A stretch of 64,000 nucleotides of DNA from Candidatus Spongiisociaceae bacterium (GCA_965262915.1 OZ253564.1:1376001-1440000); one strand, 5' to 3'; positions 2,110 through 53,312 are shown, counted from the stretch's first letter. Numbers and translations: made by a program. The notes: a model not told the origin generated them from the sequence alone.

Positions 2110-2213
2110 GTGCCGGCGTTTTCCCGGCCCGTAAATCCGCTTCTCGGCTTTTGGGCTGTGTTGGTTACCGGTCGGTGGTCTGGGTGTGGGGTGTTTCCGC
2201 CTGAAACTGGCGG
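2110..2213 (-). repeat. Non-coding module D, copy 1
   Basis: ...gtgtttccgcctgaaactggcgg core; similar copies at 11440-11550(+), 44822-44935(-), 52731-52832(+) and partial 45500-45545(-). Confidence 0.75.
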
Positions 2214-2904
2214 GTAAGAAACCGCTGAAGGTCTTGGATCGAGGCTGGCTCGATCCCGATCCTGCTGCTCTGTGTTGCCGGTCCTGGCCGAGACGTTGCC
2301 ACTCGGTGCAGGGTGATCAACCCTGGTGGTCACAATCCCCTTTCCTTACTGGCCAGCTGTGTGGGGGCGGGGTGGCGCGACGATGGGGATTCGCTCGTCG
2401 TCGAACACGCGATTTCGTGGGGTAGGGCGTTGCTGTTGCCGGTGTGGTGGTCATATTACGAGGACGCCGGGCGGCGAAGTTCTGGGTGTTGGTGACGCCG
2501 TGAGCGACGGCGGCGTAGGACTCGGGGAGGTTGTTGCTCCGTTGGTGGTGTGGTAGGCGAGAACCCTTTCCGTTACGAGGAATCCGGCTCTTCGGTTAGC
2601 CGATCTTCTATCACTTCCCGGAGTTCATCGACAGCGCTCTTGATGTTCCCCAGGGACGGGGTGTTGAACGGATGGACCCTCCGGGGCGGCCTTCCCGTCG
2701 CTTATCAGGTTTCTTGCCTCGGGTCATGGATTCGCCCTTCCTAACCGGACTGACCGTTCGCTCGTAGCCGCGGTGGCCACGGGTCTACGAGTGAGCTACA
2801 AGCCTGACCTTTGACTCTGCTCTTAAACTGTCCTACTTATAGCTACCGCTCTGGCCCGAACTGGTATCCACGTTAGGCACTTGTAATGGTGGAGCCGCTG
2901 GGTA

Positions 2905-3360
2905 ATGCTTCGGGGTACGAAGAGCCATGAAGCTTCACCGAAGGACACAGTGGAAGCGCTACTCGAGTCGGCCAACCGGCTCACCGGTGGCGGCGTACCG
3001 CTACCCGACGCTCGCTACAGCGAACACCATGTGCGGGCCAAAGTAATCGCCGAAGCCTTGACCCACTTGGGCTCCGAAGGAGTTGTGGAGGCGGTACTCG
3101 AGACACGAGCAGGTACCAACAAAGACTTCCAACCACTCGACAACAAGGATCATCAGGTGCTGCGCAAGCTTCAGCGACAAGGCGCCGTCCCGGACAGTTT
3201 CCGGATCCGTCACGACGACAAGACCGAGGCCATCCTGCAGATAGCCGATCTACTCGCCGGGGCACGCTCCGACGGGCTCTGCGGTGTCAACCGAGAAACC
3301 TATTACAGGATCAGCCACCGAGTCCGCGCTACCCGCACCGTCTTCAGCAAGAGGCCCTGA
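2905..3360 (+). CDS. DUF3800-like protein (N-terminus possibly truncated)
   Basis: C-terminal EAILQIADLLAGA matches the QxAD motif of DUF3800-type RNase H-fold proteins. Confidence 0.55.
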   Translation: MLRGTKSHEASPKDTVEALLESANRLTGGGVPLPDARYSEHHVRAKVIAEALTHLGSEGVVEAVLETRAGTNKDFQPLDNKDHQVLRKLQRQGAVPDSFRIRHDDKTEAILQIADLLAGARSDGLCGVNRETYYRISHRVRATRTVFSKRP

Positions 3361-3430
3361 ACGCGCAGAGGCCCCGGGACTACGATCCGCAGCCAATCCG
3401 GGGCGTACTTCCAGTGAGGTCCTCAAACGA
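3361..3430 (+). ncRNA. Candidate DUF3800-associated structured RNA
   Basis: Begins right after the stop codon: acgcgcaga-GCCCCGG(3371-3377)...CCGGGGC(3398-3404)-gtacttccag. No U-tract, so not a normal terminator. Confidence 0.45.
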
Positions 3431-3930
3431 CACCCATCAGCCAAAACAGCGCTCGCCGTTAACTTCCGTGTGGCCTCGGAGGATAGGTCACCAGCCACTG
3501 CGATTATCGCGGTTCGGATCCAAAACCGCAACCGATTGCTGTGTGCCTTGTAACAATCCACCCGGTCAGAAGTCGAGTCCGAGGCCACCCCGCCTGCGCT
3601 GCTGGATCTCCTGCTCCTGGGCCTGCCGTTCTTGCAGGGAGGCTAGGGCGTCGTCGATGTACCGGGTACCGACCCATTCGTTGACGACTTGCAGCGCCTC
3701 GACGTGGGTGGTTCCCTCGGGGATGATCCCGAACCCTGCGACGGCTTCCGCCAGACCTCCCTGAGTCCGTCGGCGACGACGCTCAGGGAGGAGTAGGCAG
3801 GCCCGGGCGTCTCAGGACAGCCAGCGCCACATGCCAGGGTACGCCGGCCTGCCCTGGTAACGGTTGCTGCCCCTCGTCTCGGCATCCAACTAGGCCACCC
3901 CCGTATCGAGCAACGGATCCCCCTTCCGCT

Positions 3931-4160
3931 GGGGGCTCGACCGGCCGCCGACAGCGGTTACCCGCCCGATGGTCTCACCAGCGTTGGCGGCTCCGTTTGG
4001 GTGGGTGTCGGAGGGGGGAGTGGAGGCGGCAGTGGTCGGCCGGGTTGTAGATGGATAGACGCGCCGTGCAGCTGTCGGTGGTGCAGTAGCGGCCGGGGGG
4101 ATATGTGCGTGGTGGGAGCCCTTGGTGGCGGACTCTGGTCATAGGGGGTTCACGGTACCC
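3931..4160 (+). repeat. Non-coding module A, copy 1
   Basis: gggggctcgaccggccgccgacagcggttacccgcccgatgg...ttcacggtaccc, repeated near 9976, 44225 and (reverse) 52121-52345. Confidence 0.9.
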
Positions 4161-4641
4161 GGGAGCGGTCTCCGCTGACGGGTGGCGGCAGCGGAGGACC
4201 CCTCCGCTGGGGGCAGCGACTCCTGGGTTTTGGGCGGCGTAGGGCGATTCGACTAACAGCAGCAGCGAGAGCTGGTGCGGCGGGCGGTCGCTGTCTTTCG
4301 CGCCGCCCCGACCTGACGGCCCCCATGTGGGTACCGCCACTGCAGTTTGAGGTCCGCGGCTCCGAGGCATGTACGCGTCGCGGGGCCGCTGCCGTCTCTG
4401 TGCTCGGCCGCTGTCCGTTCCCGTCGCCCAGTTGAGATAGAAGGATTCAGGCGTCGCTGGGCATGTCGGAGAAACACCTGATGACCACCTCGGGATTCCG
4501 CCCGACGAACAGCGTTGCGGCTTGGTTCCGGGCTTCGACTGGTTGTGTAACCACCGGGCTGCCAGCCCATTCCGGGGAGTCTCGAAAGGTTCTATGCTTG
4601 GCCGGTGACAGCGAGAAGGTGGGGACAAGGGATGTCCGGCG

Positions 4642-6412: not shown

Positions 6413-8181
6413 CCCCAATTCTTCACGTGTTGGGGGGTTAGGGGGGTGAGCTGGTTGGGGGTGGGTTAGCCGGCTTGGTTTTTGGGGGGTTGGCGGGTTC
6501 TGGGGGTGTTGGGGTGGGTATACGGGGGCGGTTTGAGGGTTTGAGGGGTGGGGTTAGGTGTTAGGGGCGTGGTGGGTTCAGGGTGGGGGTGGTGTGGGGG
6601 TGGGGGTTGTTCAGATGGTGTGGATGTGTTGGTGGGTGGTCGCGATGAGGGTGGCGGTGGGCCAGGTGGGCGGTATTCGGAGGGTGGTTTGTCGGCTGTG
6701 GCGTGCGATGACGCCTGGTATGTGCCATAGGTTCGGGCGCAGTGTTTTGGGTTTGGCTCGGGTGAGGGGGTGGTGTTTGGGTAGGGAGAGTTTCTGGAAC
6801 CAGCGGACCAGGGTGTCGGCGAGGGCGACTATGTGGAGCCAGAGCCGGTTAGGGGCGTATCTGGCGAATGGGAAGCGGTTGCCGCCGTGGTCTTTGACGC
6901 GGGCGATGTGGGTTTCGACTCGGGCGTGGGCGCGCATGTCGCGGTCGGATTCGGGAGCGGCTGCTTTGCTGTCGGTCCAGTGTCCCCAGTATCGGTAGTC
7001 CTCGGAGCCGAACAGGGATCGTTTCGCGCCGGGGTGGCGGGGTTCGCGTCTGATGACGAGTCGGAGGTCGTCGGGCCAGTTGTAGGCTTTGACGTGGTCG
7101 GTGAGTTCGATCACATGGGCACGAACCGGATCAGGTTCTGCGTCTTCGGTCCCGTTGTCGGAGCGGACAGCGTCGGGTCCCTCCTCCGGGTTGTCGACCC
7201 CTGCGGTGTTCGGGTTGTTGTGTTGGGCTGGTCTGGGTTGGGGAAGGGCAGGCTCCCAGCGTGGGTCGTCTACGGGGATGTGGCTGAGGGCTTCGGCGAT
7301 CCCGTCGGAGCGTTTAGCGACGAAACTGAACCCGATGTTACGTTTGTGGCATTCGGTAGCGAACGCGGGTCCCGCCGCGGAATCGGCCCGGACCCGGATC
7401 CGATAGGCCACCCGCTCGGGGTCGTCACCCGGCGAATGCCCCACCCGCATCCGGGCGGGCAGCGCCCTGATAGCCGCGTCCAGCACCTCGACCAGGTCAG
7501 AAACCTGATTAGGCGCGGCGTTGCCTCGCCGCAGCCGAACAGCGAGCGGCTCCCCCGTCCAGTCCGCGAAGCAATACATCGGATGGAACCCGTACTTGTA
7601 GTTATAGGTCGGCGCGGCGCCCGCCTTGTTCTCCGAATGCAGCTCATGAACCGACGAATCAATATCCAGCACCACCGTCTCCCCTGCCGGGTAATCAGCC
7701 CACACCCGCTCCCGGACCCTGGCCATCCCGTCGGCCAGCCTCTCCACCAACCCCCCATCCGCTCCGGTGAGGGTCCGGTACAGAGTCGAGTCCGACGCCA
7801 CCTCACCGAACAATCGGCGCTGGGAACGCAACGTCTCGATGTCAGTGCAAGCCTCCCCACCCCCGGCCAACACGAGCATCAAATGAACCAGCACCCGGCC
7901 CCGATCATGAACCACCCCCGAAGCACCGAACGCTTCCGACAAAACCTCGCCCACCCGCAGACGATCCGCGAACCGGCCCAACAACCACAACCCCACATGA
8001 CCGACCTGGCTGCCACCACCCACCTCGACCCTCAACGCCAAACTGCTGTTAGCCTTCACCATACGGGTGCCCTCCTGACTGCGACCATGGACGTTTACTT
8101 CACCGCCCATAATCGCAGGTCAGAAGGGCATTCCCGTGTCAAACCACCCACCCCCACCACCAACCCCATGAAGAATTGGGG
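6413..8181 (-). mobile_element. IS1380-family insertion sequence, apparently intact
   Basis: 13-bp terminal inverted repeats ccccaattcttca (6413-6425) / tgaagaattgggg (8169-8181), flanked by CTAG on both sides (6409-6412, 8182-8185). Confidence 0.9.
6611..8110 (-). CDS. IS1380-family DDE transposase
   Basis: Motifs VASDSTLYR, VVLDIDSS, GFHPMYCF, LRRGNA, VRADSA and HARVETHI. Confidence 0.9.
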   Translation of the reverse strand: MGGEVNVHGRSQEGTRMVKANSSLALRVEVGGGSQVGHVGLWLLGRFADRLRVGEVLSEAFGASGVVHDRGRVLVHLMLVLAGGGEACTDIETLRSQRRLFGEVASDSTLYRTLTGADGGLVERLADGMARVRERVWADYPAGETVVLDIDSSVHELHSENKAGAAPTYNYKYGFHPMYCFADWTGEPLAVRLRRGNAAPNQVSDLVEVLDAAIRALPARMRVGHSPGDDPERVAYRIRVRADSAAGPAFATECHKRNIGFSFVAKRSDGIAEALSHIPVDDPRWEPALPQPRPAQHNNPNTAGVDNPEEGPDAVRSDNGTEDAEPDPVRAHVIELTDHVKAYNWPDDLRLVIRREPRHPGAKRSLFGSEDYRYWGHWTDSKAAAPESDRDMRAHARVETHIARVKDHGGNRFPFARYAPNRLWLHIVALADTLVRWFQKLSLPKHHPLTRAKPKTLRPNLWHIPGVIARHSRQTTLRIPPTWPTATLIATTHQHIHTI

Positions 8182-8282: not shown

Positions 8283-9094
8283 ATGATGTCGTCCATGTTG
8301 TTTGAAGAACCCACGGATTCGGGGCCCTCGCCCCGCTCGGTGTCGGTGGCCGCGCTGACCGATATCGGGCCTCGCGAGGCGAATGAGGACCGCATGTTCA
8401 CGGTGCTGTCGGATGATGGTGCTTGGGTGATCGCGGTGGCCGACGGGCTGGGGGGCCAACCCCGTGGTGACGAAGCGGCGTAGGCCGCCGTGGAGGGTCT
8501 GCCATAACGGATCGATGGTGAGGCCGAGATGGTCATGGCGTTTGTGGAGGCCAACGAGCGGGTGGTCGCGCTGTTCGGGCGGCGAGAGCGGAGCCGTCGG
8601 GTACCGCTCCGCAAGATTCCGATGAGCACGCTGTGTGTGGCGGCGTGGACACCCGAGGGTGGTCTGGTTATCGGGTGGATGGGCGACACGATGCCGTTGG
8701 TGGTGAAGTCCGGGCCGGGTGGCTTGGGGGATACTGCTGCGGCGTTCCCCATCGAAGCCCCTCCGGGGGTATCAACGCGTGTCTAGGACTACCGCCCAAG
8801 GACGGGGGGTACGATGCCGGGCTGGTTGAGGTCGAGGTGGTCGCCGACTTCGAGGAGCCCGACGGTGTGATCATCGCCAGTGACGGTGCCTGGGAACCAC
8901 TCGCGGACGCCTACGGTGACAACACGGGGTGGCTTTGGGACGAATCACCCGCCGGTATCGGGTCGGTGTGCCCTCCCGACGCCGACAACGCAGCGGAGGT
9001 CGCCCGCAGTGTCCTGACGAAAGCTCGTAGCGTCGGGCTCAAGGACAACGCCACCGTGGCGGTCGCCTACTGGAGACGGCCACCGGACCGCTGA
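8283..9094 (+). pseudogene. PP2C-family Ser/Thr phosphatase pseudogene
   Basis: Motifs TDIGPREANED, VADGLGG, WMGD, IIASDGAW and KDNATV, broken by in-frame TAG (8481), TAA (~8505) and a frameshift near 8720. Confidence 0.8.
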
Positions 9095-9234: not shown

Positions 9235-9648
9235 GGGACCTGGTACTTCCGCAAGGACGTGAACGCCCTCACCGATCCGGTGTCCTACTGGGTGAACACC
9301 GACGGGACCCGGGACGTGGGAACCGAGGGCGGGATCCCTGGACCGTACGTCGGGGTGAACTGTGGGGAGGACAGGTTCGTGAACCTCCGCTAGGACTACG
9401 ACGAGGAGACGGTCGAGGTCGAGTACCGCCTCTATCCGGACACCGAGGTGATCTCCGAGACGTTGTGGACAGTCGACGAGCAGGGGAGGAACACGTACCT
9501 CAGCCCGCCCGACGAGTCCACTACGTTCCTGGAGAGGCTACACGCCGAGGGAGCGGAGGAACTCAGGATGCACGTCGAATCTGAGACCTATCGGTTCCCG
9601 ATCGACGGCTTCGAGGTGGTCTTCAGCCGGCTCAACACCGTCTGCTAG
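9235..9648 (+). pseudogene. Disrupted hypothetical (probably exported) protein
   Basis: Continuous frame GTWYFRKDVNALTDPVSYW...NLR*DYDEETVEVEYRL...LNTVC with one internal TAG at ~9391. Confidence 0.4.
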
Positions 9649-9794
9649 GAGCCGGCAGCCTTCCCACCCACCTCAGAGGGCCGCTACTGGAGGCAACGGA
9701 GGACCCCTCCGCTGGGGGCTCGTGTCGGTGGTGTGGTCTCGACGACGGGCGACCTAATGGTGGTCATCCAATATCGGCTCTTGCTCGTGTCGCT

Positions 9795-10203
9795 GTGGGT
9801 GCTGGTGGACAAAGACACGCCGGCGGCGGGTCGGGAGTGGTGGTCGATGGTGTCCCGCATCCGGGGAGCCCGCGGGTAGAGCGGCGTTGTGGGCCCGGGA
9901 ACCTCGGGCCGTTTCCCCCCACATAACGGCCCCTCCCACCTACTGGCGTACTCCCGACCTCTGAAAGGGACTCGGGGGGGCTCGACCGGCCGCCGACAGC
10001 GGTTACCCGCCCGATGGGCCTCACCAGCGTTGGCGGCTCCATTTGGGTGGGAGTCGGAGGGAGTGGAGGTGGCAGTGGTCGGTCGGGTTGTAGATGGATA
10101 GGCGCGCCGTGCAGCTGTCGGTGGCGCAGTGGCGGCCGGGGGGATATGTGGGTGGTGGGCGCCCTGGGGGGCGGACTCTGCTCATAGGGGGTTCACGGTA
10201 CCC
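9795..10203 (+). repeat. Non-coding modules A'+A, copy 2
   Basis: Colinear with the reverse complement of 52121-52524 and with 44125-44445. Confidence 0.9.
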
Positions 10204-10287
10204 GTTTTGTTTAGCTGTGACCGAGGGCTATCGGTTCGACGTTGCATAGCTGGTTGAAGCTGTCCTGATCGGCGATAACACGGGCCG

Positions 10288-10527
10288 TCTCCGGCAGGTC
10301 ACCAGATGCGGCCGATACCCGCAAACGCGGGAGCTCGTCACTAGCCCGGTCTCCGCTGACCATCGTTGACCATGTTAACCGTCGCATATTCGACCGTGTT
10401 ATGCACGACTCGGACGGCCCTACCCCAAAACCGCCATCTACCTGGGGAAACGCCGCAGGCGCGGCTTTACATGATGTCTGTTATCGGACACCGGCGTCCC
10501 CGGCATCAGCCTCCGGAGAAGGCGTCG
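10288..10527 (+). repeat. Non-coding module B, copy 1
   Basis: ggtctccgctgaccatcgttgac...ctacctgggga...gatgtc..ttatcggac; copies at 50555-50778(+) and 51914-52100(-). Confidence 0.85.
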
Positions 10528-11324
10528 CGGATTGCATCACAAAGCCACGGCTCCTGCCCGCAGAACCAACTCTTCAAAAGTAGGGAAAGAACGACTGCCA
10601 AAGCGATGAGCCCCAATGTGCCGATTACCCGCCACGACACGAACCCAGGCCACCACAGGAGAGGTGGCCGTCTCGATTCCCACTCCGGGATGACCAGGTC
10701 GACGTCGTTGTCGTGGTCACTCAACGGCGGCGTGATCCTCTCAGAGGTCTGAGAACCGGACCCGCCGGTAGGTGTGATGTAGTCGAGGAGCCGGTCTTTC
10801 ACATCCCAAGCCTTGGCAAAGAGATCCTCGACCCGCTCTACCGCCTCATCCACCTCCCCAGCAGCGATCTCAGCGACCATCTCCGCGTTGCGATACAAAC
10901 CCTGATGGGCGAGGTTCGCCGATCCGCTCAGCACGGCAGAGCGGGGAACGTCATAAGCAACCCACACTTTCAGGTGTGCTTCAGAGGCCCCACCACGCTT
11001 CTTGTACCAATTTCGGACTACCACATCCGACCGCTCCAAGAAAGCGACTGCTTCGGCACGGTCCTCCGCTTTCGCATGCTTGAAGTACTTAGGCCGGCAG
11101 TCGCCTATAAGAAGCCGCACCCTGCGGTCCCCCGTTCTACGAGCAAGCCAGGCGATCCCCGGCACGCTGCTGTACCCAACCGCGACCGTTAACGGCACCC
11201 CAGGACGATCATCCAAAACTTCTCGATACGGGTAGCTGCCGTCCGATCCATAACCCCCCACTCCTCCTACATTCGACTCGGCAGAGAGTAGACACCCCGA
11301 CAGGCCGACTCCTTCCACCCCCAA
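10506..11324 (-). CDS. Phospholipase D-like (single HxK) nuclease-family protein with C-terminal transmembrane helix; start uncertain
   Basis: Motifs VAVGY, LLIGD, HLKVWV and SGSANL...GLYRNAE, then hydrophobic VIGTLGLIALAVVLSLLL. Confidence 0.7.
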   Translation of the reverse strand: MGVEGVGLSGCLLSAESNVGGVGGYGSDGSYPYREVLDDRPGVPLTVAVGYSSVPGIAWLARRTGDRRVRLLIGDCRPKYFKHAKAEDRAEAVAFLERSDVVVRNWYKKRGGASEAHLKVWVAYDVPRSAVLSGSANLAHQGLYRNAEMVAEIAAGEVDEAVERVEDLFAKAWDVKDRLLDYITPTGGSGSQTSERITPPLSDHDNDVDLVIPEWESRRPPLLWWPGFVSWRVIGTLGLIALAVVLSLLLKSWFCGQEPWLCDAIRDAFSGG

Positions 11325-12443
11325 TAACGGAAGGGATGTCCGTTGCTCGATGCGGTTGACCTGGTCAGAATGCCGGGAGTTGGGGGTAGTCGGAACAGCG
11401 GCGGGAAGGGACGGGACGGCCTAGGCCTCGACTTTTGGTCCGAGCCGCCAGTTTCGGGCGGTAACACCCCAGAAACAGTGTTCGGAACGTTAACCAACAC
11501 AACCCAAAGGTCTAGAAGCCGTTTTGGGGGCCGGGAGATCCCGCCCACGATCTGAACACCCTACGGACGCCAGTTTGCACAACAACACCCAGACGGGGGA
11601 GGCACACCAGGGCGGGCCCCCGCCCCGGCAGGACGCGTCGAAGTTGGTGGACCTCTCCACGCTCGAAACCGAATCGTTAGCCCTGCGTAACGCCGCTGCT
11701 ATCTGAAAACCCTCAAGGAAGGCTGCCTCAGCCGTCCCCTTCGAGTACCTGCCTGCACCCTGCCGTCAGCTGACCCATCGGGCAGCCTCGTGCGTAGGCA
11801 ACGGCCCCCGCCGTTTGGAAGTCCCCGATACTGAGCATCCCCTGCGCCGGCGGTTCATCCTCGGCCGGGTCGGTTCCACCACGCCGGCGAGGACCTCGAC
11901 GGAGATGACCAGTAGCGCTGGCTGTCCTAAGACGCCCGAACCGGCCTGACTGCCCCATGAGCCCCTCCAGCGGAGGGGTCGTCATAGCCAACAGCCAGCT
12001 AACTTGGCTGTAGCAGCGGCAGCCGAGTGGTGAAGTCCCACGGCTAATACCACGTTGCGGCGGGGGAGCACCCCGATATCGGCCTCCGAACACCCGCCAA
12101 CCCGGCGCCGAAACGAAAGGCATTACCCCGAGTCAAGTCCGGTCACGGAGGGTCGGATGACCGAGCGACACATCGAGGACTCGCAGCAGCCACCGACGCC
12201 CTGAACGCAGCCCCCCGGCGGCGCTATGAGGCCCTCTCCGCCGCGCTCGACGCCGGGCGGCCCCAGCAGGACGTGGCGGCTGTGGCCGGTATGTCCCCGC
12301 CTGCGCCGTCCCCGATGATCCGCCAGGAGATCGACGGGCAGTCGTAGGGTGGTCTTGATGGAGGCTCTGGCCGTGGTGGAGGTGACACGACCGGCACGCT
12401 CCGGCGAACTGCGCCGTAGCCAAGCGCCAGGCCAATGCTGGCG

Positions 12444-13199: not shown

Positions 13200-13403
13200 C
13201 AAACGCGCAGGGCCTCTCATTTCCGAAGAGCCGAGAAACGTCAAGCGGTGCGGTTCAACTCACCCACCGACCTGGACGCTGTCGCCGCAGCCCTCAACAG
13301 TCGACCCCGCAAAGCCCTCAACTGGAAGACCCCCGCCGAGACCCTTAACGAACACCTACACTCCCTCAAACAAGGCAGTGTTGCAACGACCCCTTGAACC
13401 TGG
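13200..13403 (+). mobile_element. IS30-family 3' end remnant
   Basis: Similar to the reverse complement of 42335-42540; ends tgttgcaacgaccccttgaacctgg. Confidence 0.8.
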
Positions 13404-35244: not shown

Positions 35245-35442
35245 CTGGGTTCCCAGCGTTTCTGTTGGTTCTTACCTGTTTCAGAACTACTTAAAGGGCC
35301 TGGTCACAGCTATGTTCTGCAAGCTTCCGATCCGCCCGGTGACGGCTGGTCGTGCTGTGTCAAGTGTTCCTTGACTTTCCGCTCCGTTCCGGGTAGTTTC
35401 ATCGTACTGTGGGATATATAGTGGGATACCAGGGAGAGGGAA

Positions 35443-41653: not shown

Positions 41654-43788
<2,135 letters not shown>

Positions 43789-44124
43789 CAATATTTGTCC
43801 ATTCGTTACACGAACCGGCTGGCGGAAGCCGGCATCGAGCCATCGGTCGGCTCGGTTGGGGATTCGTACGATAACGCCCTCGCGGAGTCCGTCATTGGTC
43901 TGTACAAGACAGAACTCATCCACAAACGCGCTCCGTGGAAGGACCTCGACCAGGTCGAGTACGCCACCCTCGAATACGTGGACTGGTTCAACCACCGGCG
44001 GCTTCTCGAACCCATCGGAGACATCCCACCAGCAGAGAAGGAGGCCAACTACCATCAACAACAGGAACGAGTCCAGCTAGCTGGACTCAAGTAAAACACT
44101 CTCCGGCAAACCCGGTACGGTTCA

Positions 44125-44445
44125 GGTAGAGCAGCGTTCCGGGCCTGGGAACCTCGGGCTGTTTCTCCCCACGTAACGGCCCCGCCCATCTGCTGGCGTA
44201 CTCTCGACCTCTGAAAGGGACTCGGGGGGCTCGACCGGCCGCCGACAGCGGTTACCCGCCCGATGGTCTCACCAGCGTTGGCGGTCCCGTTTGAGGGGGG
44301 AGTGGAGGCCGCAGTGGTCGGTCGGGTTGTAGATGGATAGGCGCGCCGTGCAGCTGTCGGTGGCGCAGTGGCGGCCGGGGGGATATGTGGGTGGTGGGCG
44401 GCCTTGTTGGGGGCGGGCACTGGTCATAGGGGGTTTCACGGTACG
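44125..44445 (+). repeat. Non-coding modules A'+A, copy 3 (truncated by the IS3 end)
   Basis: Matches 9876-10200. Confidence 0.9.
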
Positions 44446-44451
44446 CGTTTG

Positions 44452-44697
44452 CTATCGCACCGGTTTTGGTGTTCGGTGGCGTCGTGATCTCTCGGCTACT
44501 GCCGTCACCGAGATGGCTACCAGCAGAGTCCCAAGGGTGAGCGGCGCAGTCATGGTGGCGGTCAGTGCCCAGGCCTCGGGTTGCACACCGGCGACTTCTA
44601 CGTTCAGGATCCGGGTAACGGCGACAAACAGGACTAGCAGTGCTAGGAAACCGCCGCCAATAACAGTTACCCGTCTAGTCCAACGGTAACTCGCCAT
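44452..44697 (-). CDS. Small two-TM membrane protein
   Basis: gaggagg RBS; two hydrophobic segments; lies between modules A and D. Confidence 0.6.
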   Translation of the reverse strand: MASYRWTRRVTVIGGGFLALLVLFVAVTRILNVEVAGVQPEAWALTATMTAPLTLGTLLVAISVTAVAERSRRHRTPKPVR

Positions 44698-45174
44698 GAT
44701 ACCTCCTCAACAATCCCACAGTGGGATAGATAACCTAAGCGTACCGGGTATGGGCGCTTACCCGAGGGGAACCCAGACAATCGGACCGAGGGCTGCAAAC
44801 TTAGAACGGCCAAGCTGTATGGGTCGTGGCCGGGTTCTCCCAACCCCCAAATCGGCTTCCGGGCTTTTGGGTCGCGTTGGTTAACGGTTCGGGGGTCGGG
44901 TTCGGGGGTGTTTCCGCCCGAAACTGGCGGCTCGAAAATCATCAGAGGCTGAGGCCGGGTCTGGCCTGGCCCTTCCCCGCTGTCAGCAACGGAGGACCCT
45001 TCCGTGGGAGGGGCTTAGGGGGCAGTTAGGCAGGCTGGGCGTTTCAGGACAGCCAGCGCGCGGGTAGGGAGGCTGTGGGGTGTGTGCCCGGGTGGGGAAA
45101 TCCACCAGTTGAGGAGGTTCCTCGGGTTTGATACCGAGTGCAAAAAACTCACCCCAACTGGTGGAGACATCATT

Positions 45175-45330
45175 ATGCGCGCGCTCGAACCCGAAGTAGT
45201 AAACGTGGTCTGGACAGCGGTCGAGGCTTTGATACCGTCCCGTGAGGACAACCATCCACTCCGATGCCATAACCCACGCATCCCGGACCGTCTCTGTTTG
45301 TGGGGATCCTGGTGCGGCTGGTGACCCGTC
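45175..45330 (+). pseudogene. IS5-family transposase N-terminal fragment
   Basis: MRALEPEVVNVVWTAVEALIP...HPLRCHNPRIPDRLC. Confidence 0.65.
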
Positions 45331-45603
45331 GGGCCTCCGTACCCCACCAACAAGAGAACCCGACCGACCCCACACACCCTCACCAGCCCCAACACGGCTC
45401 CCCCTCCTAAACCCCCACCACCTACACCCCCTCCGCCGCAAGCTCAGGAGGACGCCCAAGAAAAGAAGGGCGCAAACCAGGACGGCCAAGCCTCCCCGGC
45501 TCATGGCAGGGTTCTCCCAGCCCGCAAAACGGCTCCCAGCCCTTTGCCCTTTCCCCGCACCGGACGGTCCATCCGCCGCTTCGACCAGACGTTCCGGGCT
45601 CGG

Positions 45604-46011
45604 TTACGGCTTCTGCTGGCCCCTTAGTTTCGGGGTGGTGAAGGGATGCAGCAACAGATGCTCGTTGAGAGTCCCCATCTCGGCTGCTGTCGCCATGGCC
45701 TGGGCAAGGAGATCGAAGTCCTCGGCTTTGAACCCTCGGGCAACCAACTTGTCGAACTGGGTCAGCGCCTCCATGACCTCAGCGTCATCGGAGAACGCCA
45801 CGACCACCTCGTTCAGGGCAACCCAGAACTCTTCTGTATCAGGCGCTCCTTTAACAAGCGTGTGGCGAGCGCCGACTAGCTTGCGGAGCACATCCCGGCG
45901 CATACGCCGCCGCTCGGACTCGTCAGCCAACTTCTGCGTGCGCTGTATAGCCCAGCGGGTCACAGCGAACCCGGATACAGCCAACAAGAGCGCCGCCCCT
46001 AACTCCCACAT
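45604..46011 (-). CDS. Membrane-anchored hypothetical protein (DUF6680-like)
   Basis: N-terminal TM helix, then [12 protein letters not shown]...[12 protein letters not shown]...LLAQAMA. Confidence 0.55.
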
Positions 46012-46208
46012 CGCTCCACACCTTAGAACCGCGTGCGCCAACCTGTGTTGTGGTCCCCTCTCGGGCAAGCCCTCCCGCTCTTCGAATGAAAGACCAGCAA
46101 CGGACCACCCTTCCGCTGCGGGGCTCAGGCACGGTGGCTGTGGCACCGGTGGCAACTGGCGGGTTCCCTTTCGGTTCGGCCCGGTGTCGTCGGGTTGTTG
46201 GTGGCACG

Positions 46209-46571
46209 ATGAGAGAAGCCCCGATTTCGAAAGGGAGAAATATCTTGTCGAGGCAGACCGAACTGCATAAGATCTTACAAGCCAAGAAGGACCTTGACCC
46301 TGTTGAGCAGGCCCAGTTCGAGTCGGCGTATTCTCGTCAACGCAAAGACCCGACGGTAGCTCTGCTCCTGAGCCTCTTCTTAGGAGGGCTGGGAGTGGAC
46401 CGCTTCTACATTGGCCATATCGGACGCGGCATCGCGAAGTTGCTCACGCTCGGCGGTCTCCTTATCTGGCAGATCGTCGACTGGTTCCTGATCCGCCGCC
46501 GAACCGCCGCCAAGAACGCTAAAACGATCCGTGAGGTCAGGGCGGCAATCCTCGCAGCTAGAGCGTCCTAA
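46209..46571 (+). CDS. TM2 domain protein
   Basis: [24 protein letters not shown]...WQIVDWFLI. Confidence 0.85.
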
Positions 46572-46944
46572 CCCCCGTCCTAGCGGGCTGTTCGCCGCTG
46601 GGCGGCAGCGGACACCCCTTCCGTTGGGGGGCTCAGGGGGTGGTGGGGTGCGTTTCGTCCGTGTCGAGACCCTCGGCTGGACGGTACCCGGACGAAAGTC
46701 CTCCCCTCTTACCACCGTGCGGCACGGTCCTTGGTCATCGGACGGGTTCGGCGAGTCGCCCCTCGGGGTCGTGTCGCCGATGTGCTGGAAGCGGGATGAT
46801 CCTGTGGGTTGCATGCCGAACATTGTCTTACCGCAGGTTGGCGCCAACAACCGGTGACATACCCGTACCTGCCCTTAGACACTGAGGGATAGACCAGGGT
46901 GATGCCCTATAGACAATCCGTTCGAGGTGTCGGATAGTTAGGTC

Positions 46945-48468
46945 ATGAGTAACCGAACTGCATCACTTCACCGTCCTGACGAGGGCCGCTGGCTGGCGGG
47001 GGTAGCGGCCGGTGTGGGTCGGCGTTTCGGAGTTCCGGTATGGATCCTCCGGGTCGCTTTCGCTCTGCTCTGCTTCGCAGGCGGGCTGGGGGCCCTGCTG
47101 TACGTGGCGGGCTGGCTGCTGATTCCCGGTGAGGGCGAGACCGACGCGATCGTGGCGGGCTGGTTGGGTACCGGCCAGATCCGGCGGTGGGTAGGCGTGA
47201 TCCTTGTCGGTCTCGCCGTCATAATCCTGGTCAACCAGACAGGTCTCATCAGGGGTGACCTGGCGTTCGCGGTGGTACTGATCGGTATCGGCGTGATGCT
47301 TTACCGCGGGGACCTGAGCCGTGGAGACCACCAGCAGGACTCCACCCCGTCGCGTGCCCAACCTGGTGCGTCGTCGTCCCCTCAGGCTATGCCTTCTGGT
47401 ACGGCCGCCGACCCGCCGGTCGGAGCCCCGTCCCCGCCGCCGGTGCGGACGCCACCTCCACCGCCGCGGGAGACTTCGTTTCTTGGCAGGGTGTCGGTGG
47501 GGTTCGCTGTGTTGGCGTTGGGAGTGCTCGGCCTATTCGACAGTACCGTTCCCGGTTTCGATCCCCAGCTCCGCCACTACGTGGCGTTGTTGGTAGCGGT
47601 CACAGGCGTCGGTCTGGTGGTCGGCGCCTGGTTCGGTCGTACGAGAGGTCTGACCGTGCTCGGCGTTGTGCTACTCCCGATCCTGGTCCTGTCACCGTTA
47701 CCGGAGCAGGTCGACCAGAGATCGTCTATCGATTTCGACTTCGCATCGGTTGGACAAGCACAACATCGACCGGGGACGGTAGAGGAGATACTCGCTGAGT
47801 ACGAGATGGGTCTTGGTTCGCTGCTCATCGACCTCCGGGATGTCGACTTCGCCGGTCATACCGTGGCTACGCGAGCCGACGTGGGAATCGGCGAAATCCT
47901 CGTGCGGGTACCGGAGGGCGTGTCCGCCCACGTGAGCGGTCGGGTGGGTATGGGAACGTTGCAGGTCGGCGACCAGGGACAGGGGGGAATCGGCGTCGAG
48001 GGTGATCTCCGCTTGGAGGGAACGGGGGGCAAGCTGGTACTAGATGCAGACATCGGAATCGGCCAGATAGTGGTGTACTCGTGGCCGGAGGACGATCACT
48101 CCCCCTACCCGGGTTCGCAGGAGCCAGCAGGTCGAGACATGTACCGGATCAGAAACGAGGCAGATCTCCGAGAGGCGTACACGCTGGAGAACGGGTCGCT
48201 GCGGTTAGATCTCGGGGAACTGGTCCTCGAGGATGACAAGAGCGTACGCGTCGACGTGGGTCGGGGCGAAGTGTGGGTGACCGTACCGCGGGAACTGGCC
48301 CTGCGGATCACCAGCCGGGTGGACCGTGGGAGCCTCACCCTGTTCGACGAAAGACAGAACGGATCCAATCTGTATGCGGAACGTTCCCTCCATCGAATAG
48401 GAGCCCCCCTGCTCACACTGGACATCAGCCTCGGCGAAGGGACCATGATCGTGGCGCAACAGCAATGA
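46945..48468 (+). CDS. PspC-domain membrane protein with two LiaF/DUF2154-like beta domains
   Basis: LHRPDEGRWLAGVAAGVGRRFG...LYVAGWLLIP; repeated GSLxxDL...GEIxVxVP. Confidence 0.85.
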   Translation: MSNRTASLHRPDEGRWLAGVAAGVGRRFGVPVWILRVAFALLCFAGGLGALLYVAGWLLIPGEGETDAIVAGWLGTGQIRRWVGVILVGLAVIILVNQTGLIRGDLAFAVVLIGIGVMLYRGDLSRGDHQQDSTPSRAQPGASSSPQAMPSGTAADPPVGAPSPPPVRTPPPPPRETSFLGRVSVGFAVLALGVLGLFDSTVPGFDPQLRHYVALLVAVTGVGLVVGAWFGRTRGLTVLGVVLLPILVLSPLPEQVDQRSSIDFDFASVGQAQHRPGTVEEILAEYEMGLGSLLIDLRDVDFAGHTVATRADVGIGEILVRVPEGVSAHVSGRVGMGTLQVGDQGQGGIGVEGDLRLEGTGGKLVLDADIGIGQIVVYSWPEDDHSPYPGSQEPAGRDMYRIRNEADLREAYTLENGSLRLDLGELVLEDDKSVRVDVGRGEVWVTVPRELALRITSRVDRGSLTLFDERQNGSNLYAERSLHRIGAPLLTLDISLGEGTMIVAQQQ

Positions 48469-48719
48469 AACGCCATACGTTCAATGCTTTCTCGCTGGTG
48501 TTCGGAGCAATACTGATCCTGGCGGCCGCGTGGAGCGCATTTTCGGGCCAAGGATGGTTGTTCGACATCCCCCACTGGTTGGTGCCCACGGCGGCGATCC
48601 TCGTCGGTGCCGCTCTGATAAGCCCCTTGTTCGCCTCCAAACAGAGCAACAGGGAACACCCCGAAGAGAACGGTGCGGTCGCCCAGTCCCAGGAGACGAA
48701 CAACCCTGCTCCCGGCTAG
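48465..48719 (+). CDS. Small membrane protein coupled to the PspC gene
   Basis: ATGA overlap; MKRHTFNAFSLVFGAILI... Confidence 0.7.
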   Translation: MKRHTFNAFSLVFGAILILAAAWSAFSGQGWLFDIPHWLVPTAAILVGAALISPLFASKQSNREHPEENGAVAQSQETNNPAPG

Positions 48720-49344
48720 GGGTTGCCTGATCATGTGTGCCAAATCGGCGGGTTGTACTTCGTCTAATGGGTTGGGGCGGGTTTGGGTTGCCGGAATATC
48801 TGAACGAGATGTGGTGCGGTTCCAAGATGTGTACCGGCCTTGTTGACGATCATTGAAGCTACCCGGCCTTCCCTGTTAGACGAGGTACCTTCATCCCTAT
48901 TGGCTGGAGACAGTTGGCTGCAACTTCAGTTGATACTGCAAGGCCTTTAGTACCCTGTTGCGGTACTTCTCTTCGGTTGCGGCGAACGGCTCCAAGCTGC
49001 CACCGAACAGTCCAGCTTGGAGCCGCCCCAGTCGGCGCCCGCTTGTTCTGCTTCTGTCTTTATCCGCTCCCAGAGAGGCGGCCCGATGTCGAATACCAGT
49101 TCGTGGTGACATCGCCGATGGGCGGGCACGCCATCGCCGCCTACCAAAACGAAGGCCACACCGTCGAAGACCAGCACCTGGCCCACATACGCCCCGCCCG
49201 ATTCGAGCACATCAACCCCTACAGCACCTACAACCTCAACGTCGAAGCCGTACTCCAACGAATCCAACACCGACCCCTCAAACCTGCCCAACCCATTAGA
49301 CGAAGTACAACCCGCCGATTTGGCACAAATGATCAGCCACCCCC
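48719..49344 (+). mobile_element. Miniature non-autonomous Tn3-family derivative
   Basis: 49-bp IRs starting GGGG (48719-48767, 49296-49344); tnpA C-terminus LAHIRPARFEHINPYSTY; one res-type half-site at ~48875. Confidence 0.8.
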
Positions 49345-49536
49345 CACACCCAACACTCGGTCGGACCTCAAAGCCCACAACCGCACACCCCGGCAGTCAC
49401 CTGAGCTGTCATTGTGTCTAGGCTGTCGAGTCTCGGCGCGGCATCGAAATCGGAACGGCAGACGGTGCGGATGCTTGAGCGATCGGCGGTTTGCTCAAGT
49501 TGATACTCGCAAGCGGTGCTTCCTAGCCTCCCCCAC

Positions 49537-50493
49537 ATGACCGATGATCAGCCCGATCGAAGCCAAATCTGGAATCTGCTGAACTACAAGACCCTGCATG
49601 CGACTGCATCGCTCATGTATCTGCTCCAGGGCATGGAACTGGTCCGAGGGCGGATTCTGCCCACATACAACAGAGTTCCGCCGAACAGCCGCCACGGGGC
49701 AGTCTTTCCGCCGGAACTCTCCTATGTGGATATCCCGCTGGTGGACAACGGTCCGGGCTTCGACCTCAACGAGGTCTTGGGGCGCGAGGGCGAAGCCGAG
49801 CAACTCGCATTCAAAGCCTGGATCGAGGAAACGTACAACATCGTCTGGGAAAGCGATCTACGCAACGTCATGAAAGCGAGCATTGCTGCCAATGACGCGA
49901 TTCGCCCACGAGCCAACCCCTGGGGCGATCTGAGGCACATCAGAAACGATCTCGTGCACCACGCTGGCATCGCGAGCGCCCAAGAGACCGGCAAGTGCAC
50001 TGTCCTCAGATGGTTCGAGCCAGGCGATCCGATGATTCTCACGATGGGTCACGTGCTTGACTTCCTCAACCACATGAACCTCATGAACCTGATGGGCGGG
50101 TTCATATCCGGAGCTGCAGCCAGGTGGTTCGTGTACCCCCAGATGCGCAGCGCACTGGAGGAACGGGAAACCCCCGAAATCGTCTCGCTGCGCATCGTGT
50201 TCATCGGAGCGGACGACGACGGCACCAGCGCCCACGGCATCTGTGTTGCCTTCGACAACGGAGTCTGGGCGAAGACTCCATTCAGGCATCCTGCCAACGG
50301 TACGCCGATACCGGACCGCATGGCATTCATGGAACAAACCCTCGTTGACGACGACGGCAATGTGAGGCTCGCCAACGGAACCACCCTCGACCGACGCGAC
50401 CTGTACCTGTCCGGCATCGCCGTCATGTTCGGCGACGTACCACAAGACGACAAGCCGCCCCTGCCCGGTCCGTGGTTCCAATTCAGAGAATGA
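49537..50493 (+). CDS. Hypothetical protein with RxxxxH (HEPN-like) motif
   Basis: WGDLRHIRNDLVHHAG; intact 318-codon ORF with normal codon pattern. Confidence 0.65.
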   Translation: MTDDQPDRSQIWNLLNYKTLHATASLMYLLQGMELVRGRILPTYNRVPPNSRHGAVFPPELSYVDIPLVDNGPGFDLNEVLGREGEAEQLAFKAWIEETYNIVWESDLRNVMKASIAANDAIRPRANPWGDLRHIRNDLVHHAGIASAQETGKCTVLRWFEPGDPMILTMGHVLDFLNHMNLMNLMGGFISGAAARWFVYPQMRSALEERETPEIVSLRIVFIGADDDGTSAHGICVAFDNGVWAKTPFRHPANGTPIPDRMAFMEQTLVDDDGNVRLANGTTLDRRDLYLSGIAVMFGDVPQDDKPPLPGPWFQFRE

Positions 50494-50554
50494 ACCCGAT
50501 CACAAGGCTCAAATGTGCCGTCCGTGACATCATGCGGCGACGTGACGCCGGACC

Positions 50555-50778
50555 GACTCCGGCAGGTCGCCAGGTGCGGCCGAATGCCCGGAAACGCCGG
50601 GAGTTCGTCTACTGGCCCGGTCTCCGCTGACCATCGTTGACTAGCGCTGTGTGGTGTATATCCAAACGTGGCCGGGCGGGTTTATGCACGGCCCGGCTGC
50701 TGGTTTCCGGAAACCGGCTTCTACCTGGGGAGACGCTGCGGGCCCAGCTTGTCATGATGTCTTTTATCGGACATCACG
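50555..50778 (+). repeat. Non-coding module B, copy 2
   Basis: Similar to 10288-10495. Confidence 0.75.
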
Positions 50779-51018
50779 TTCCCCCGCCGGTGTCCGCCCC
50801 GTTGGTCTTGGTAGCCGGCTACCGGGCTGCACGCTGCGCTGCATCAACGGACTACCCCTCCGCTGGAGGGGCTCAAGAGAGTGTTAGGCAGGCCGGGCGA
50901 CCTATGACAGCCGGCCACAGTTCCCCGTCCAGATCCTCGCCCAGTGTGGGTGATGTCCCGGATTCGGCGTGTGGCTGCCCGGCGGCGGTGAGGAAGCGTT
51001 TGCCCCAATCAGGCGTGT

Positions 51019-51687
51019 TTAGAGCCAGACCTCCACACCGCCCGAGAACGCTGAATCATGTAGTGTCAGTACCGCTCCAGTTCCATCTCGCGGGAAGCTT
51101 TCGGGAACATCGAAGGGCACTATCGCCTCAAAGCTCAGTCCCGGATTTAGGTCCTCTAAGGCGGTGCCGCTCCAGGTAAAAGAGGCAGCATCATATGTAG
51201 CTGCGCCTAATGTGAGTTTTTGATTACCTGCGAAGAAGGACTGCGCTTCGTCGCTGACATTCGTTACCTTTATCCGAGCAATAAGCCACGTACCGAGTGC
51301 CTCATCCTCTAGCCCTCCAGACCCGAGGATCTTGCCTGGCTGTTCTACATCGATAACAACAAACTCAAACTTGCCGTCCCGTACCGGGTCGCCGATGCTC
51401 GCTCGCTTAGGGGGAGGCTTAGTAGTCGTTGTAGTTGTTGTGGCGATGCGCGTCGTCGTAGTAGTCGTTGCCTCGGAACGAGGTTGAGCACTAGTTGGGG
51501 ACTGATTGCTCCCGGTGTCGCTACCGACGATGCTACCAACGATGAGAACACCAAAGGAAGCGGCCACAATCAACAGAGCACGCGACCGCGGGATCCGCAG
51601 CGCCTTGATCGGGTAGATGACGTTGACAAGGCCGAGAAGGAACGATAACAACCCCAGTAGGACGAGAAGAGTGCCTAAAGTGTCCAA
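51019..51687 (-). CDS. DUF4352-domain membrane-anchored protein
   Basis: Two TM helices, Thr-rich linker, IGDPVRDGKFEFVV, LNPG...FDVP and LHDSAFSGGV. Confidence 0.85.
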   Translation of the reverse strand: MDTLGTLLVLLGLLSFLLGLVNVIYPIKALRIPRSRALLIVAASFGVLIVGSIVGSDTGSNQSPTSAQPRSEATTTTTTRIATTTTTTTKPPPKRASIGDPVRDGKFEFVVIDVEQPGKILGSGGLEDEALGTWLIARIKVTNVSDEAQSFFAGNQKLTLGAATYDAASFTWSGTALEDLNPGLSFEAIVPFDVPESFPRDGTGAVLTLHDSAFSGGVEVWL

Positions 51688-51913
51688 CTTAATCTCCCAT
51701 CCTTCAAGAACCTAACTCCTTTAGGGGTGCCAGCCTGCTCGGAGTCGCTTCAGGTCCCTTTAAGGGTTGAACCCTAGCTCCGGAGCCGTCCCGACCTCGC
51801 TGGGGTCTGTGTCAGGAAGCTGTCCTCAACGCGGGGCGCTACCCAAGTTAACAAAGTCGGGTCTTCCCCGGACAGGAGGGGTGCCATAGGTCCCCGTCCC
51901 AGGTCCCTCCCCC

Positions 51914-52524
51914 CGACGCCTTCTCCGGAGGCTGATGCCGGGTAGGCCGTTGTCCGATAATAGATATTATGTAAACCTGCGCCCGTGGTGTTTCCCCAGG
52001 TAGATGGCGGTTTCCGGCAGTAGGCGGCCGGTGACGTGCATAACACGGTCGAATATGCGGCGGTTAATACCGGTCGACGATGGTCAGCAGAGACCGGGCT
52101 GGTAGAGGAGCTCCCGGCGGGTACGGTTAACCCCCTATGAGCAGAGTCCGGCCCCCAGGGCGCCCACCACCCACATATCCTCCCGGCCGCCACTGCGCCA
52201 GCGACAGCTGCGCGGCGCGTCTGTCCATTTACAACCCGACCGACCACTGCGGCCTCCACTCCCTCCGACACCCACTCAAACGGAGCCGCCGAGGCTGGTG
52301 AGAGCATCGGGCGGGTAGCCGCTGTCGGCGGCGGGTCGAGCCTCCCGAGCCCTTTCAGAGGTTGGGAGTACCCCAGTAGGTAGGAGGGGCCGTTACGTGA
52401 GAGGAGACGGGCCCGAGGTTCCCGGGCCCAGAACGCTGCTCTACCCGCGGGCTCGCCGGATGCGGGACATCATCGACCACCACTCCCGATCCGCCGCCAG
52501 CGTGTCTTTATCTACCAGCACCCC
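51914..52524 (-). repeat. Non-coding modules A'+A+B, copy 4 (inverted)
   Basis: Reverse complement of 9795-10203 joined almost directly to 10345-10527. Confidence 0.9.
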
Positions 52525-52594
52525 AGCCGAGGCCCTCACCGAACACCTAGACTCCCTCCAACAAGGCACTGTTGCAACGACCCCTTGAACCTGG
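52525..52594 (+). mobile_element. IS30 3' end remnant
   Basis: gccgaggccctcaccgaacacctagactccctccaacaaggcactgttgcaacgaccccttgaacctgg. Confidence 0.75.
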
Positions 52595-53312
52595 TGAGAC
52601 CACACCAACCGACCCCAGCCCCCAGCGGAAGGGTGCTCCGCTGCCGCCACCCGGCGACAGCCATGGAACCGGGTTCCCCAGCCCGTCGTGGCGGCTGTGG
52701 CCCAGCATGTCGCCGTCTGCGTTCTCGAGGGGGTTTCGGGCGGAAACACCCCAAAACCCGCCGTCAGAACGCTAACCACCATAACCCAAAGGCCTAGAAG
52801 CCGTTTTGGGGGCCGGGAGAACCCCGCCACGACCTAGGAGGCCTGACCGCTCCGGTTTCCACGTGTCAGCTGGTGCAGCCTGCGAGCGAGCTACGAGCCT
52901 AGGGGGTCCGTCCCCAACCGCCGACGGACAGCTGCGCCGCCGAATCCGGGGGCAACCCACCCGCCGCCGGCGACGACCCCGACGGGGGGCTATGACGCTG
53001 GCTGTCCTGAGAACGCCCGGCCTGCCTGACTCCCCTCCAGCGGAAGGGAAGTCCCCTGCCGCCGCCCAGCGAATTGCCAGGTAACCGGTTCCCCTACGTC
53101 GTGGCAGTTGGGGGGACGGGGGGTTTCAGGTTGCTACTACGGAATTCCTGGTTACGAAATGCCGGCGCCTTACCGAAGGTTGTGGGTCGCCTCGGTGCGG
53201 AACAGATGCACGAGGGTTACGGCAATCTGGACCGCTGCTTCGGCCCAGGCTGCTTTACAAGGGCCAGTTGGGGCAGCGCTGCGAGTCGGCAGCGATTCTC
53301 TTGCAGGATCAA

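Follow-up and report, generated by a model that had tools for sequence, protein, structure and literature searches.

Dispersed repeat modules of a Candidatus Spongiisociaceae genome include a small protein-coding gene and the tails of others

The analysed window, a 64,000-nucleotide (nt) stretch of the Candidatus Spongiisociaceae bacterium genome (GCA_965262915.1, OZ253564.1:1376001-1440000), contains two islands in which four repeat modules, A, B, D and E, are interspersed with changing cargo genes and with a 21-bp palindrome, here called P. A first-pass annotation of the window had treated the modules as one class of long non-coding elements carrying no conserved open reading frame (ORF). 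That description does not hold: by its pattern of substitutions, module A is a small protein-coding gene under purifying selection, and module E and the distal end of module B hold the last codons of genes. The explanation that we favor, with a rough probability of 0.55, is that the modules are backbone pieces of lineage-specific small cassettes, reshuffled by general recombination within islands rich in mobile elements.

Repeats within the window were identified by a repeat search and self-BLASTN, and genome copies were counted by BLASTN at E ≤ 1e-4 across 5,055,038 bases (64.4% G+C), of which the window occupies positions 1376001-1440000. All four modules were recovered where they had first been placed, far beyond chance (self-BLASTN E-values from 1e-6 to 1e-155). 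For module A, segment 3931-4161 matches 9976-10204 (92.7% identity, E 2e-92), 9792-10204 matches the inverted segment 52527-52118 (90.1% across 414 nt, E 7e-155), and 9875-10207 matches 44125-44450 (88%). Module B at 10281-10490 matches 50549-50773 (74%, E 3e-32), and 10328-10530 matches the inverted segment 52116-51911 (85%). The D copies align as 11451-11553 with 52733-52835 (84%), 11441-11550 with 44934-44824 (81%), 2112-2213 with 44829-44930 (81%) and, for a partial copy, 44789-44869 with 45467-45546 (77%). The E copies align as 11915-11983 with 45059-44992 (83%), 45020-45058 with 53035-52996 (90%) and, from the repeat search of the window, 3781-3827 with 45013-45059 (77%). The modules had been described as common to two islands, and both islands of the window do carry them; they are, however, spread genome-wide, with 12 matches to A, 13 to B, 20 to D and 12 to E in approximately 20 loci. 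Across these loci a recurring order is seen: P, the two segments of A (A1 and A2), B, one to a few cargo genes, and then D and/or E. Sister genomes from the same genus contain fewer copies of the modules, and in more diverged form (70-88% identity). Seven of 40 relatives match window 9688-10530 (query positions 1-843); A is present in five of them (G001, G002, G007, G021 and, weakly, G018), G005 and G006 match in B only, and P/D/E sequences are carried by four of the 40.

Module A occurs in a long and a short form. The long form at 9688..10207 (+ strand) consists of P (9694-9714) followed by A1 and then by A2, which holds a small gene on the opposite strand, and has counterparts of 95% identity, across 570-670 nt, at genome positions 1224214 and 2292415. 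In the short form at 3911..4209 (+), P (3911-3931) is fused directly to A2 (3931-4161), at a 9-nt repeat that is also found at the A1/A2 border, and a second P lies at 4189-4209. The copy at 44125..44450 (+) belongs to a 99%-identical duplication, and a further long-form copy at 52118..52527 (- strand) has its A1 interrupted by a 76-nt fragment of the end of an IS3 insertion sequence (IS) at 52520-52595. The small gene is found at 10024..10185 (-, 54 codons), 3978..4142 (-, 55 codons), 44272..44427 (-, 52 codons, with an in-frame 12-nt deletion) and 52137..52298 (+, 54 codons).

Several lines of evidence indicate that this gene is maintained as coding sequence. A reverse-strand ORF of 52-55 codons starting with ATG is intact in 10 of the 12 copies of A, while of the two broken copies one has an internal stop and the other lacks a start. 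Insertions and deletions in the best-conserved 230 nt are all multiples of three (3, 12 and 3 nt in a 12-copy alignment). Where A occurs in four other genomes, the reading frame is preserved and most differences fall on the third position of a codon, and the proportion of synonymous differences (pS) exceeds that of nonsynonymous differences (pN) in 26 of 26 between-genome pairs (for example, pS 0.32 against pN 0.026), as calculated over a 35-codon ungapped core with small counts per pair. Within-genome pairs are mixed: pN exceeds pS in 3 of 10, every one involving the copy at 3978-4142, which suggests that some copies of the gene are relaxed. A second candidate, a 44-codon forward ORF in A1, was dropped, its hydrophobic stretch containing arginines and its start lying outside the match to relative G002, which begins at query position 168.

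The small protein has no match in Pfam, NCBIfam or PHROG. A profile built from 11 copies nevertheless retrieved 672 clusters at E ≤ 1e-3 from 1.84 billion representative proteins, mostly of 55-120 residues. An alignment of 60 sequences defines the family signature GR-x-C-x4-C-x3-LS-x-YN-x4-C-x2-H, in which R, C, C, L, Y and C are invariant and S, N and H nearly so. The A gene carries this zinc-finger-like Cys-Cys-Cys-His (CCCH) pattern, C-x4-C followed by LS-x-YN-x4-C-x2-H, and has the usual length of the family, whose proteins are of approximately 55-110 residues. AlphaFold2, run on the same alignment, returned a model with a mean predicted local distance difference test score of 80 (approximately 90 at residues 11-40) and almost no regular secondary structure. 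The predicted fold is as expected for a metal knuckle, and the protein is probably zinc-binding; Foldseek against the PDB gave no row below E = 5, the weak rows being mostly zinc fingers. Its size, basic tail, Cys/His pattern and constant position beside palindromes suggest that the protein may bind DNA, at P or at the palindrome of module B. Family members are labelled only as hypothetical proteins, some of them from metagenome bins of Acidimicrobiia or Actinobacteria, and a literature search on the small protein found nothing. One metagenome protein, P0005, fuses the C-terminus of an IS110-type transposase to a small CCCH sequence, so IS110-type elements may insert beside A.

A six-frame profile search found the family in 85 of 301 genomes of the phylum Actinomycetota, usually with 1-7 matches each, and three whole families carry the gene in 19 of 20, 21 of 21 and 16 of 16 genomes. 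In other genomes, the best loci place the gene in conserved neighborhoods of housekeeping genes. In the first, it lies between an enoyl-CoA hydratase gene with a GNAT acetyltransferase gene on one side and a fused chorismate-binding/class IV aminotransferase gene on the other; in the second the gene is flanked by MgtE and a zincin-like peptidase, and in the third by a MerR/HMA pair and an M3 peptidase. Among the 85 genomes nine are unpublished, as are loci L066, L076 and L086, and the neighborhood result stands without them. Unlike most of these genomes, the present one has 13 family matches, of which 12 are near-identical copies inside the repeat mosaic. The thirteenth, at genome position 4894060-4894227 (72 bits), is more diverged, lies outside the mosaic and may be the native chromosomal copy. 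The A gene is thus a lineage-expanded member of a widespread, uncharacterised family, and module A is therefore not non-coding DNA.

Module B combines a conserved core with the end of a gene. The reference copy at 10281..10530 (+) has its core at 10399-10505, including an operator-like palindrome, and its distal end overlaps the 3' end of a cargo gene at 10506..11324 (-) for a PLD-like protein with a C-terminal membrane anchor (PLD-TM), whose tail, ...AIRDAFSGG*, is encoded in distal B. A diverged copy with 74% identity lies at 50549..50791 (+), and BLASTN places another at 51911..52116 (-). The distal 100 nt of the reference copy are the reverse complement of the anchor and tail of the PLD-like gene, of which only the last codons are left in B at 51911-52116 and at genome position 1260669. 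Read in this way, the distal end of B is a relic end of a membrane-anchored gene. In a sister genome (G006, locus L007), a 44-codon membrane mini-protein with a Cys-rich tail like that of PLD-TM (window 10506-10640) is likewise encoded beside a B core, and the anchor may be a reusable C-terminal module.

The core of B spans approximately 110 nt and has invariant stretches in 12 aligned copies from four genomes. Its 16-bp palindrome is perfect, TGTCCGTTATCGGACA, in two sister genomes and carries one mismatch in the window, and an A+T-rich TACRTAATG precedes it. Two sister genomes that lack A carry the core at three loci, each time approximately 100 nt upstream of a gene that is unrelated and has a clear ribosome-binding site; in the present genome the core precedes a DUF4352 gene twice and a 166-codon gene once. 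The neighboring gene converges on B in 4 of 10 cases examined, so B is equally possible as a terminator or as a binding site. Judged from these contexts, the core could be a regulatory or terminator element, acting as promoter/operator, terminator or both. Reused "mobile" promoters (PMC3575422) resemble B in that the core is nearly identical beside non-homologous genes, both here and in sister genomes without A; they differ from B, a putative promoter, with regard to the convergent neighbors.

Module E also ends a gene. In one frame its core reads ...(W/R)(R/W)LS followed by a stop codon; nine of ten matches to this pattern lie in E-type contexts, with 4 to 87 codons kept upstream of the stop, and several copies have ...HAGEDLDGxLWRWLS in common. 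The tenth match, at genome position 207823, was set aside as apparent chance. At 11882..11983 (+) the last codons RWLS and a stop at 11930 are followed by half of P, and the copy at 3781..3831 (-) ends in ...WRWLS*; the codons kept in the window are 4 at 11930, 4 at 53010, 25 at 3812 and 34 at 45044. A weaker fifth copy lies at 50815..50989 (-; match 50850-50941) with P at 50845-50865. P begins within approximately 40 nt after the stop of E. From these frames we conclude that E is the tail of a small gene, truncated in most copies, plus P.

Module D is an intergenic repeat. Its reference copy at 11441..11620 (+) contains a core of approximately 70 nt that is highly conserved across at least four subfamilies with differing flanks, and column conservation shows no clear 3-nt periodicity. 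Further copies were located by BLASTN at 2097..2213 (-) and, in part, at 45467..45547 (-). D (44822-44934) adjoins E (44978-45059) at 44822..45059 (-), and at 52596..53094 (+) P (52623-52643) is followed by its flank, D (52733-52866) and an E with a degenerate P (52917-53094). Between D and E of the first island sits the 3'-end remnant of a DUF2283-type gene with its downstream sequence (11633..11720, +; 89% identical to genome 2333916-2334002), the body of the gene being missing.

Pieces of the mosaic meet at P, CAGCGGA-N7-TCCGCTG, which borders A on its outer side and is also contained in E. Genome-wide, 26 hits were obtained with a strict pattern and 48 distinct sites with a loose one, approximately 37 of the latter in module-type contexts with the flanks judged by eye; eight sites lie in the window, at 3911, 4189, 9694, 46098, 46606, 50845, 52623 and 53773. 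One side of P carries a conserved flank of approximately 45 nt, a second conserved flank type or unique sequence, while the other side carries A1, A2, E or other sequence, and the two sides combine freely. A few sites keep one arm only, and B and the P flank switch at a common 13-nt motif containing the same half-site. In two distinct sites (three strand hits) the E core and the P flank form imperfect inverted copies around P, making a long palindrome of approximately 130 nt; 18 hits had one inverted arm only. Here as well as in a sister genome, P is followed by an SDH-type protease gene although the form of A differs, indicating that cargo beside P can be conserved between genomes while A changes.

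All-against-all BLASTN of 13 module-bearing regions defined 528 clusters of homology-block ends, of which 8.3% fall within 12 nt of TCCGCTG or its complement. Random expectation is 1.6% anywhere in the regions and 3.7% in repeat-covered sequence, an enrichment of 2.2-fold over the latter; the observed value was reached in none of 300 randomisations, and five control heptamers gave weaker or no enrichment. The mixing of flanks at P and the enrichment of block ends are compatible either with hairpin-associated breakage together with microhomology or with the action of a dedicated site-specific recombinase. The RNA hairpins predicted at P have 7-9 pairs (-12 to -18 kcal/mol), and P may also act as a terminator.

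Some of the exchange has left long, nearly unchanged copies. A 2.8-kb segment, 49343..52116 (no strand assigned), is 99% identical to genome 1263492-1260717, with the inverted repeat of a transposon-like element at one end and a B/A junction at the other, and a 1.3-kb one, window 44125-45451, matches genome 2869168-2867841, likewise at 99%. By their identity, these two duplications show recent spread. The cargo gene for DUF4352 at 51019-51687 (-) has its duplicate at genome 1261146-1261814. This gene and TM2 (46209-46571, +) were confirmed by Pfam as originally proposed, and the proposed PLD-like and DUF6680-like (45604-46011, -) assignments also drew Pfam matches, at E 1.3e-5 (just under the cut-off) and E 1.2e-4 (below the cut-off), respectively. 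Pfam matches near the copies include transposases of the IS3, IS1380, ISL3 and IS110 families and integrases; HigB/HigA-like, MazF and HepT toxin-antitoxin genes; and Fic, KAP and STAND NTPases, HNH nuclease, dCTP deaminase, cytosine methylase, DUF4062, DUF2971 and DUF6338. Defense or candidate-defense models of PADLOC were matched by 13 of 71 neighboring proteins.

We propose that a family of small cassettes would have been duplicated, truncated and recombined within islands dense with insertion sequences, toxin-antitoxin genes and defense-type genes, so that its pieces now sit between cargo units of one to a few genes. Reshuffling would proceed by recombination between dispersed repeats, with P and the related half-site serving as preferred junctions, and we infer that general recombination rather than a dedicated recombinase does this work. 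The recognisable backbone left behind would comprise a core with a regulatory or terminator role, gene tails beside a palindrome, an intergenic repeat and, together with its flanks, the small gene; A is this live gene plus its 3' flank and has reached 12-13 copies here. The first-pass annotation had offered two ideas, a backbone for gene swapping by homologous recombination or relics of integrative elements. Each is right in part. The former is sustained by the mixed flanks at P, the enriched block ends and the 99%-identical duplications. For the latter, gene tails do occur in E, in distal B and in the DUF2283 remnant, but an intact parent element was not found.

Several observations weigh against this proposal. 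First, junctions as sharp as those at the 21-bp P are better explained by site-specific than by general homologous recombination, and P is a preferred junction and not the sole one, since just 8.3% of block ends lie there. Second, possible roles in transcription gain little from the scans: hairpins at P are no more stable than G+C-matched shuffles (Z from -1.0 to +0.8), as hairpins near the end of B are also unremarkable; a sigma-70 promoter scan of 9400-12200 and 50400-53300 returned no site; and a terminator scan returned three sites, all within the PLD gene region and none in B, D or P. Third, D is strongly conserved in sequence and has no consistent orientation towards genes: the nearest downstream gene lies on the same strand in only 7 of 19 copies, and D was dropped as a promoter candidate on that count. 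Fourth, only one of 18 cargo proteins in the window matches a defense model. Finally, gene calls without Pfam support come from a simple codon-usage caller.

The first of these points leads to a different view of P, in which a site-specific tyrosine recombinase would cross over at P, the DNA from one P to the next would form a mobile cassette and the CCCH protein would perhaps be an accessory factor or regulator. We consider this unlikely, although much of the layout suits it. P is built like a recombinase core site, with 7-bp inverted arms around a 7-nt center; most loose-pattern sites lie in module-type contexts; flanks are exchanged exactly at P, some copies being one-armed; block ends are enriched at its half-site; and cargo units are found in both orientations. 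The genome has 31 tyrosine-recombinase matches, and one Xer-like gene, the only such recombinase near the modules, lies in the window at 54688-55686 and has a paralogue at genome position 4392881. The modules, however, have no consistently linked recombinase, and the Xer-like protein scores far below every curated cut-off (75.8 bits against 265 for the integron-integrase model TIGR02249 and 39.7 against 435 for NF011946). Reading of the P sequences revealed no integron attC end motifs, and the share of block ends near P is small, with other junctions at unrelated places.

Known cassette systems sharpen this comparison. Xer-dependent dif modules on Acinetobacter plasmids use 28-bp sites in which XerC and XerD arms surround a 6-bp center (11-6-11), and integron attC sites are imperfect palindromes of 57-141 bp with conserved end motifs, one per cassette and in the same orientation, with IntI encoded beside the array. 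Shared with both are small units of one to a few genes between short palindromic sites, in differing orders, and cargo enriched in toxin-antitoxin and defense-type genes. The differences are that P is 7-7-7 and not 11-6-11, that there is no dedicated integrase, that P is a near-perfect 21-bp palindrome and not the longer attC fold, that cargo lies in both orientations, and that the arrays here are chromosomal and scattered, with many junctions away from P. The more specific idea that P is the crossover of a chromosomal exchange system akin to integrons or dif modules, shuffling toxin-antitoxin, membrane and defense-type genes with the CCCH protein as a DNA-binding accessory factor or regulator, strikes us as somewhat more doubtful again.

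P with its conserved flank, and D, might alternatively be non-autonomous repeats of the repetitive extragenic palindrome (REP) or MITE (miniature inverted-repeat transposable element) type, spread in trans by a transposase encoded elsewhere, with A and B as neighbors or frequent targets. This too is improbable. REP palindromes are 20-40 bp long, extragenic and usually present in more than 100 copies, whereas MITEs have terminal inverted repeats and target-site duplications and are under approximately 600 bp in length. P is an extragenic palindrome, with 48 distinct loose-pattern sites in the genome; the flank-plus-P combination is the most widespread piece, some copies standing in otherwise unique sequence; the 130-nt palindrome provides two inverted arms at its two sites; and D lies between convergent genes in three of four sister-genome loci. 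Many IS110-type transposase genes, of several subfamilies, are present in the genome, and elements of this type target palindromic repeats according to one study (PMC1525189). On the other side, PF01797 has no match in the genome, so that no REP-associated Y1 transposase was found, in a search whose control gave positives for 6 of 14 known genomes; the copies number tens and not hundreds; the second inverted arm is missing from most copies; and no target-site duplication was demonstrated, the P-D locus probed for an empty orthologous site being itself repetitive. The separate candidate that the modules are ends of IS110-type elements was dropped, most transposase copies not being at module loci.

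The REP mosaics of enterobacteria and pseudomonads, termed bacterial interspersed mosaic elements, are among the closest known systems (PMC2817692, PMC3333891). They too consist of short G+C-rich intergenic palindromes joined to other short motifs in variable order and orientation, with a possible role in termination and as possible targets of insertion sequences. They are unlike the present case in copy number and in their association with a Y1 transposase, and here the pieces joined at P are 100-400 nt long and include a live gene and gene relics. The absence of a Y1 transposase and of an integron integrase or attC, the different core-site layout and the live gene among the repeats set this case apart.

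Longer odds attach to the modules being the surviving cis-acting or regulatory parts of decayed integrative elements or prophages, with the CCCH gene as an element-borne regulator. The second island opens with a tRNA-Leu gene followed by an integrase, fragments of integrases and many IS elements occur in the vicinity, and E and distal B are gene relics. In the protein atlas, the cluster closest to the small protein carries a 50% viral label, and more distant family members weakly match the phage family phrog_10853, of unknown function. A parent element with all modules, an integrase and att repeats was looked for and none was found, and no copy lies inside a direct-repeat-bounded element with an integrase. 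DNA searches of 50,697 phage and 72,556 plasmid records gave no match to the modules, tblastn of the phage records with one CCCH family member gave no match, and in other actinobacteria the small gene occupies housekeeping neighborhoods. Nor did any of A, B, D and E prove to be a piece of a transposase, of a relaxase or of a catalogued IS in Pfam scans that covered ORFs and called genes within and next to the modules, or in the plasmid and phage DNA searches, ISfinder not having been searched. Very improbable, finally, is that one or more modules are structured non-coding RNA genes or cis-regulatory leaders: the B and D cores are conserved in sequence across sister genomes and 3 of 13 predicted B-core pairs show a compensatory change, but the B consensus fold is weak (-7.8 kcal/mol, covariation term -0.59), RNAalifold on 18 copies of D predicted no pairing for one strand and three pairs, all invariant, for the other, and Rfam matched no module even at E ≤ 1, reaching gathering score in the 64 kb only for an ALIL pseudoknot and tRNA.

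Other features of the window were noted alongside the modules. A fifth repeat, not named in the first-pass annotation, occurs at 13258-13404, 42336-42481 and 52520-52595, has 25 genome copies and sits at the ends of IS3-family transposase genes. The ALIL pseudoknot (41672-41788; RF01497, 103 bits) lies between two IS3-type transposase frames and is the frameshift signal of that IS. The Xer-like tyrosine recombinase gene belongs to a 2.64-kb element (54269-56906) with terminal inverted repeats of approximately 60 nt, which also carries two small ORFs and an XRE-type helix-turn-helix (HTH) gene (55733-56224); 5 kb away, at 48719-49344, lies a 626-bp derivative that shares its ends, the four termini align at 93-98%, and the repeat has no other genome copy. 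At 35160-36594, tRNA-Leu(TAA) is directly followed by the integrase, which has an Arm DNA-binding domain, and this is probably the edge of the second island. A gene pair for a Gp49/HigB-like toxin and an XRE-HTH antitoxin (12444-13087) lies immediately past module E. At 8283-9094 and 6611-8110, a PP2C-like phosphatase frame, as read by eye, appears split over several frames and adjoins an IS1380-family transposase gene (DDE_Tnp_1_4, E 2e-44). A 7-nt-based tandem repeat with units spaced 14/21 nt (26303-26541) lies upstream of, and overlaps the start of, a 1141-codon ORF, and has up to 209 BLASTN matches elsewhere in the genome. A 707-codon ORF with 14 RCC1-type repeats (60709-62832) is the source of a 111-nt periodicity in the DNA. 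In contigs from four DNA runs over 43500-57500, summed word depth over cargo is below that over A and the P-D region, with low values (3-17) at 49571-50504 and 50972-51905, and several joints connect copies of the modules; these contigs give one depth each, with joints possibly derived from other copies or organisms, and were not used as evidence.

If the proposal of reshuffled cassette backbones holds, this genome illustrates the assembly and reassembly of variable islands in an actinobacterium, the joints between changing cargo being a palindrome, a core of regulatory type, the tails of genes and a single small gene. The B core, with its 16-bp palindrome, is reused beside unrelated genes in several genomes. 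To our knowledge, integrons have not been reported in the actinobacterial phylum, and if site-specific exchange at P were true, it would add a cassette system to that phylum. The CCCH family, with its 672 clusters, spans the Actinomycetota and has no curated model, and in this organism it has undergone a 12-fold expansion beside mobile DNA.

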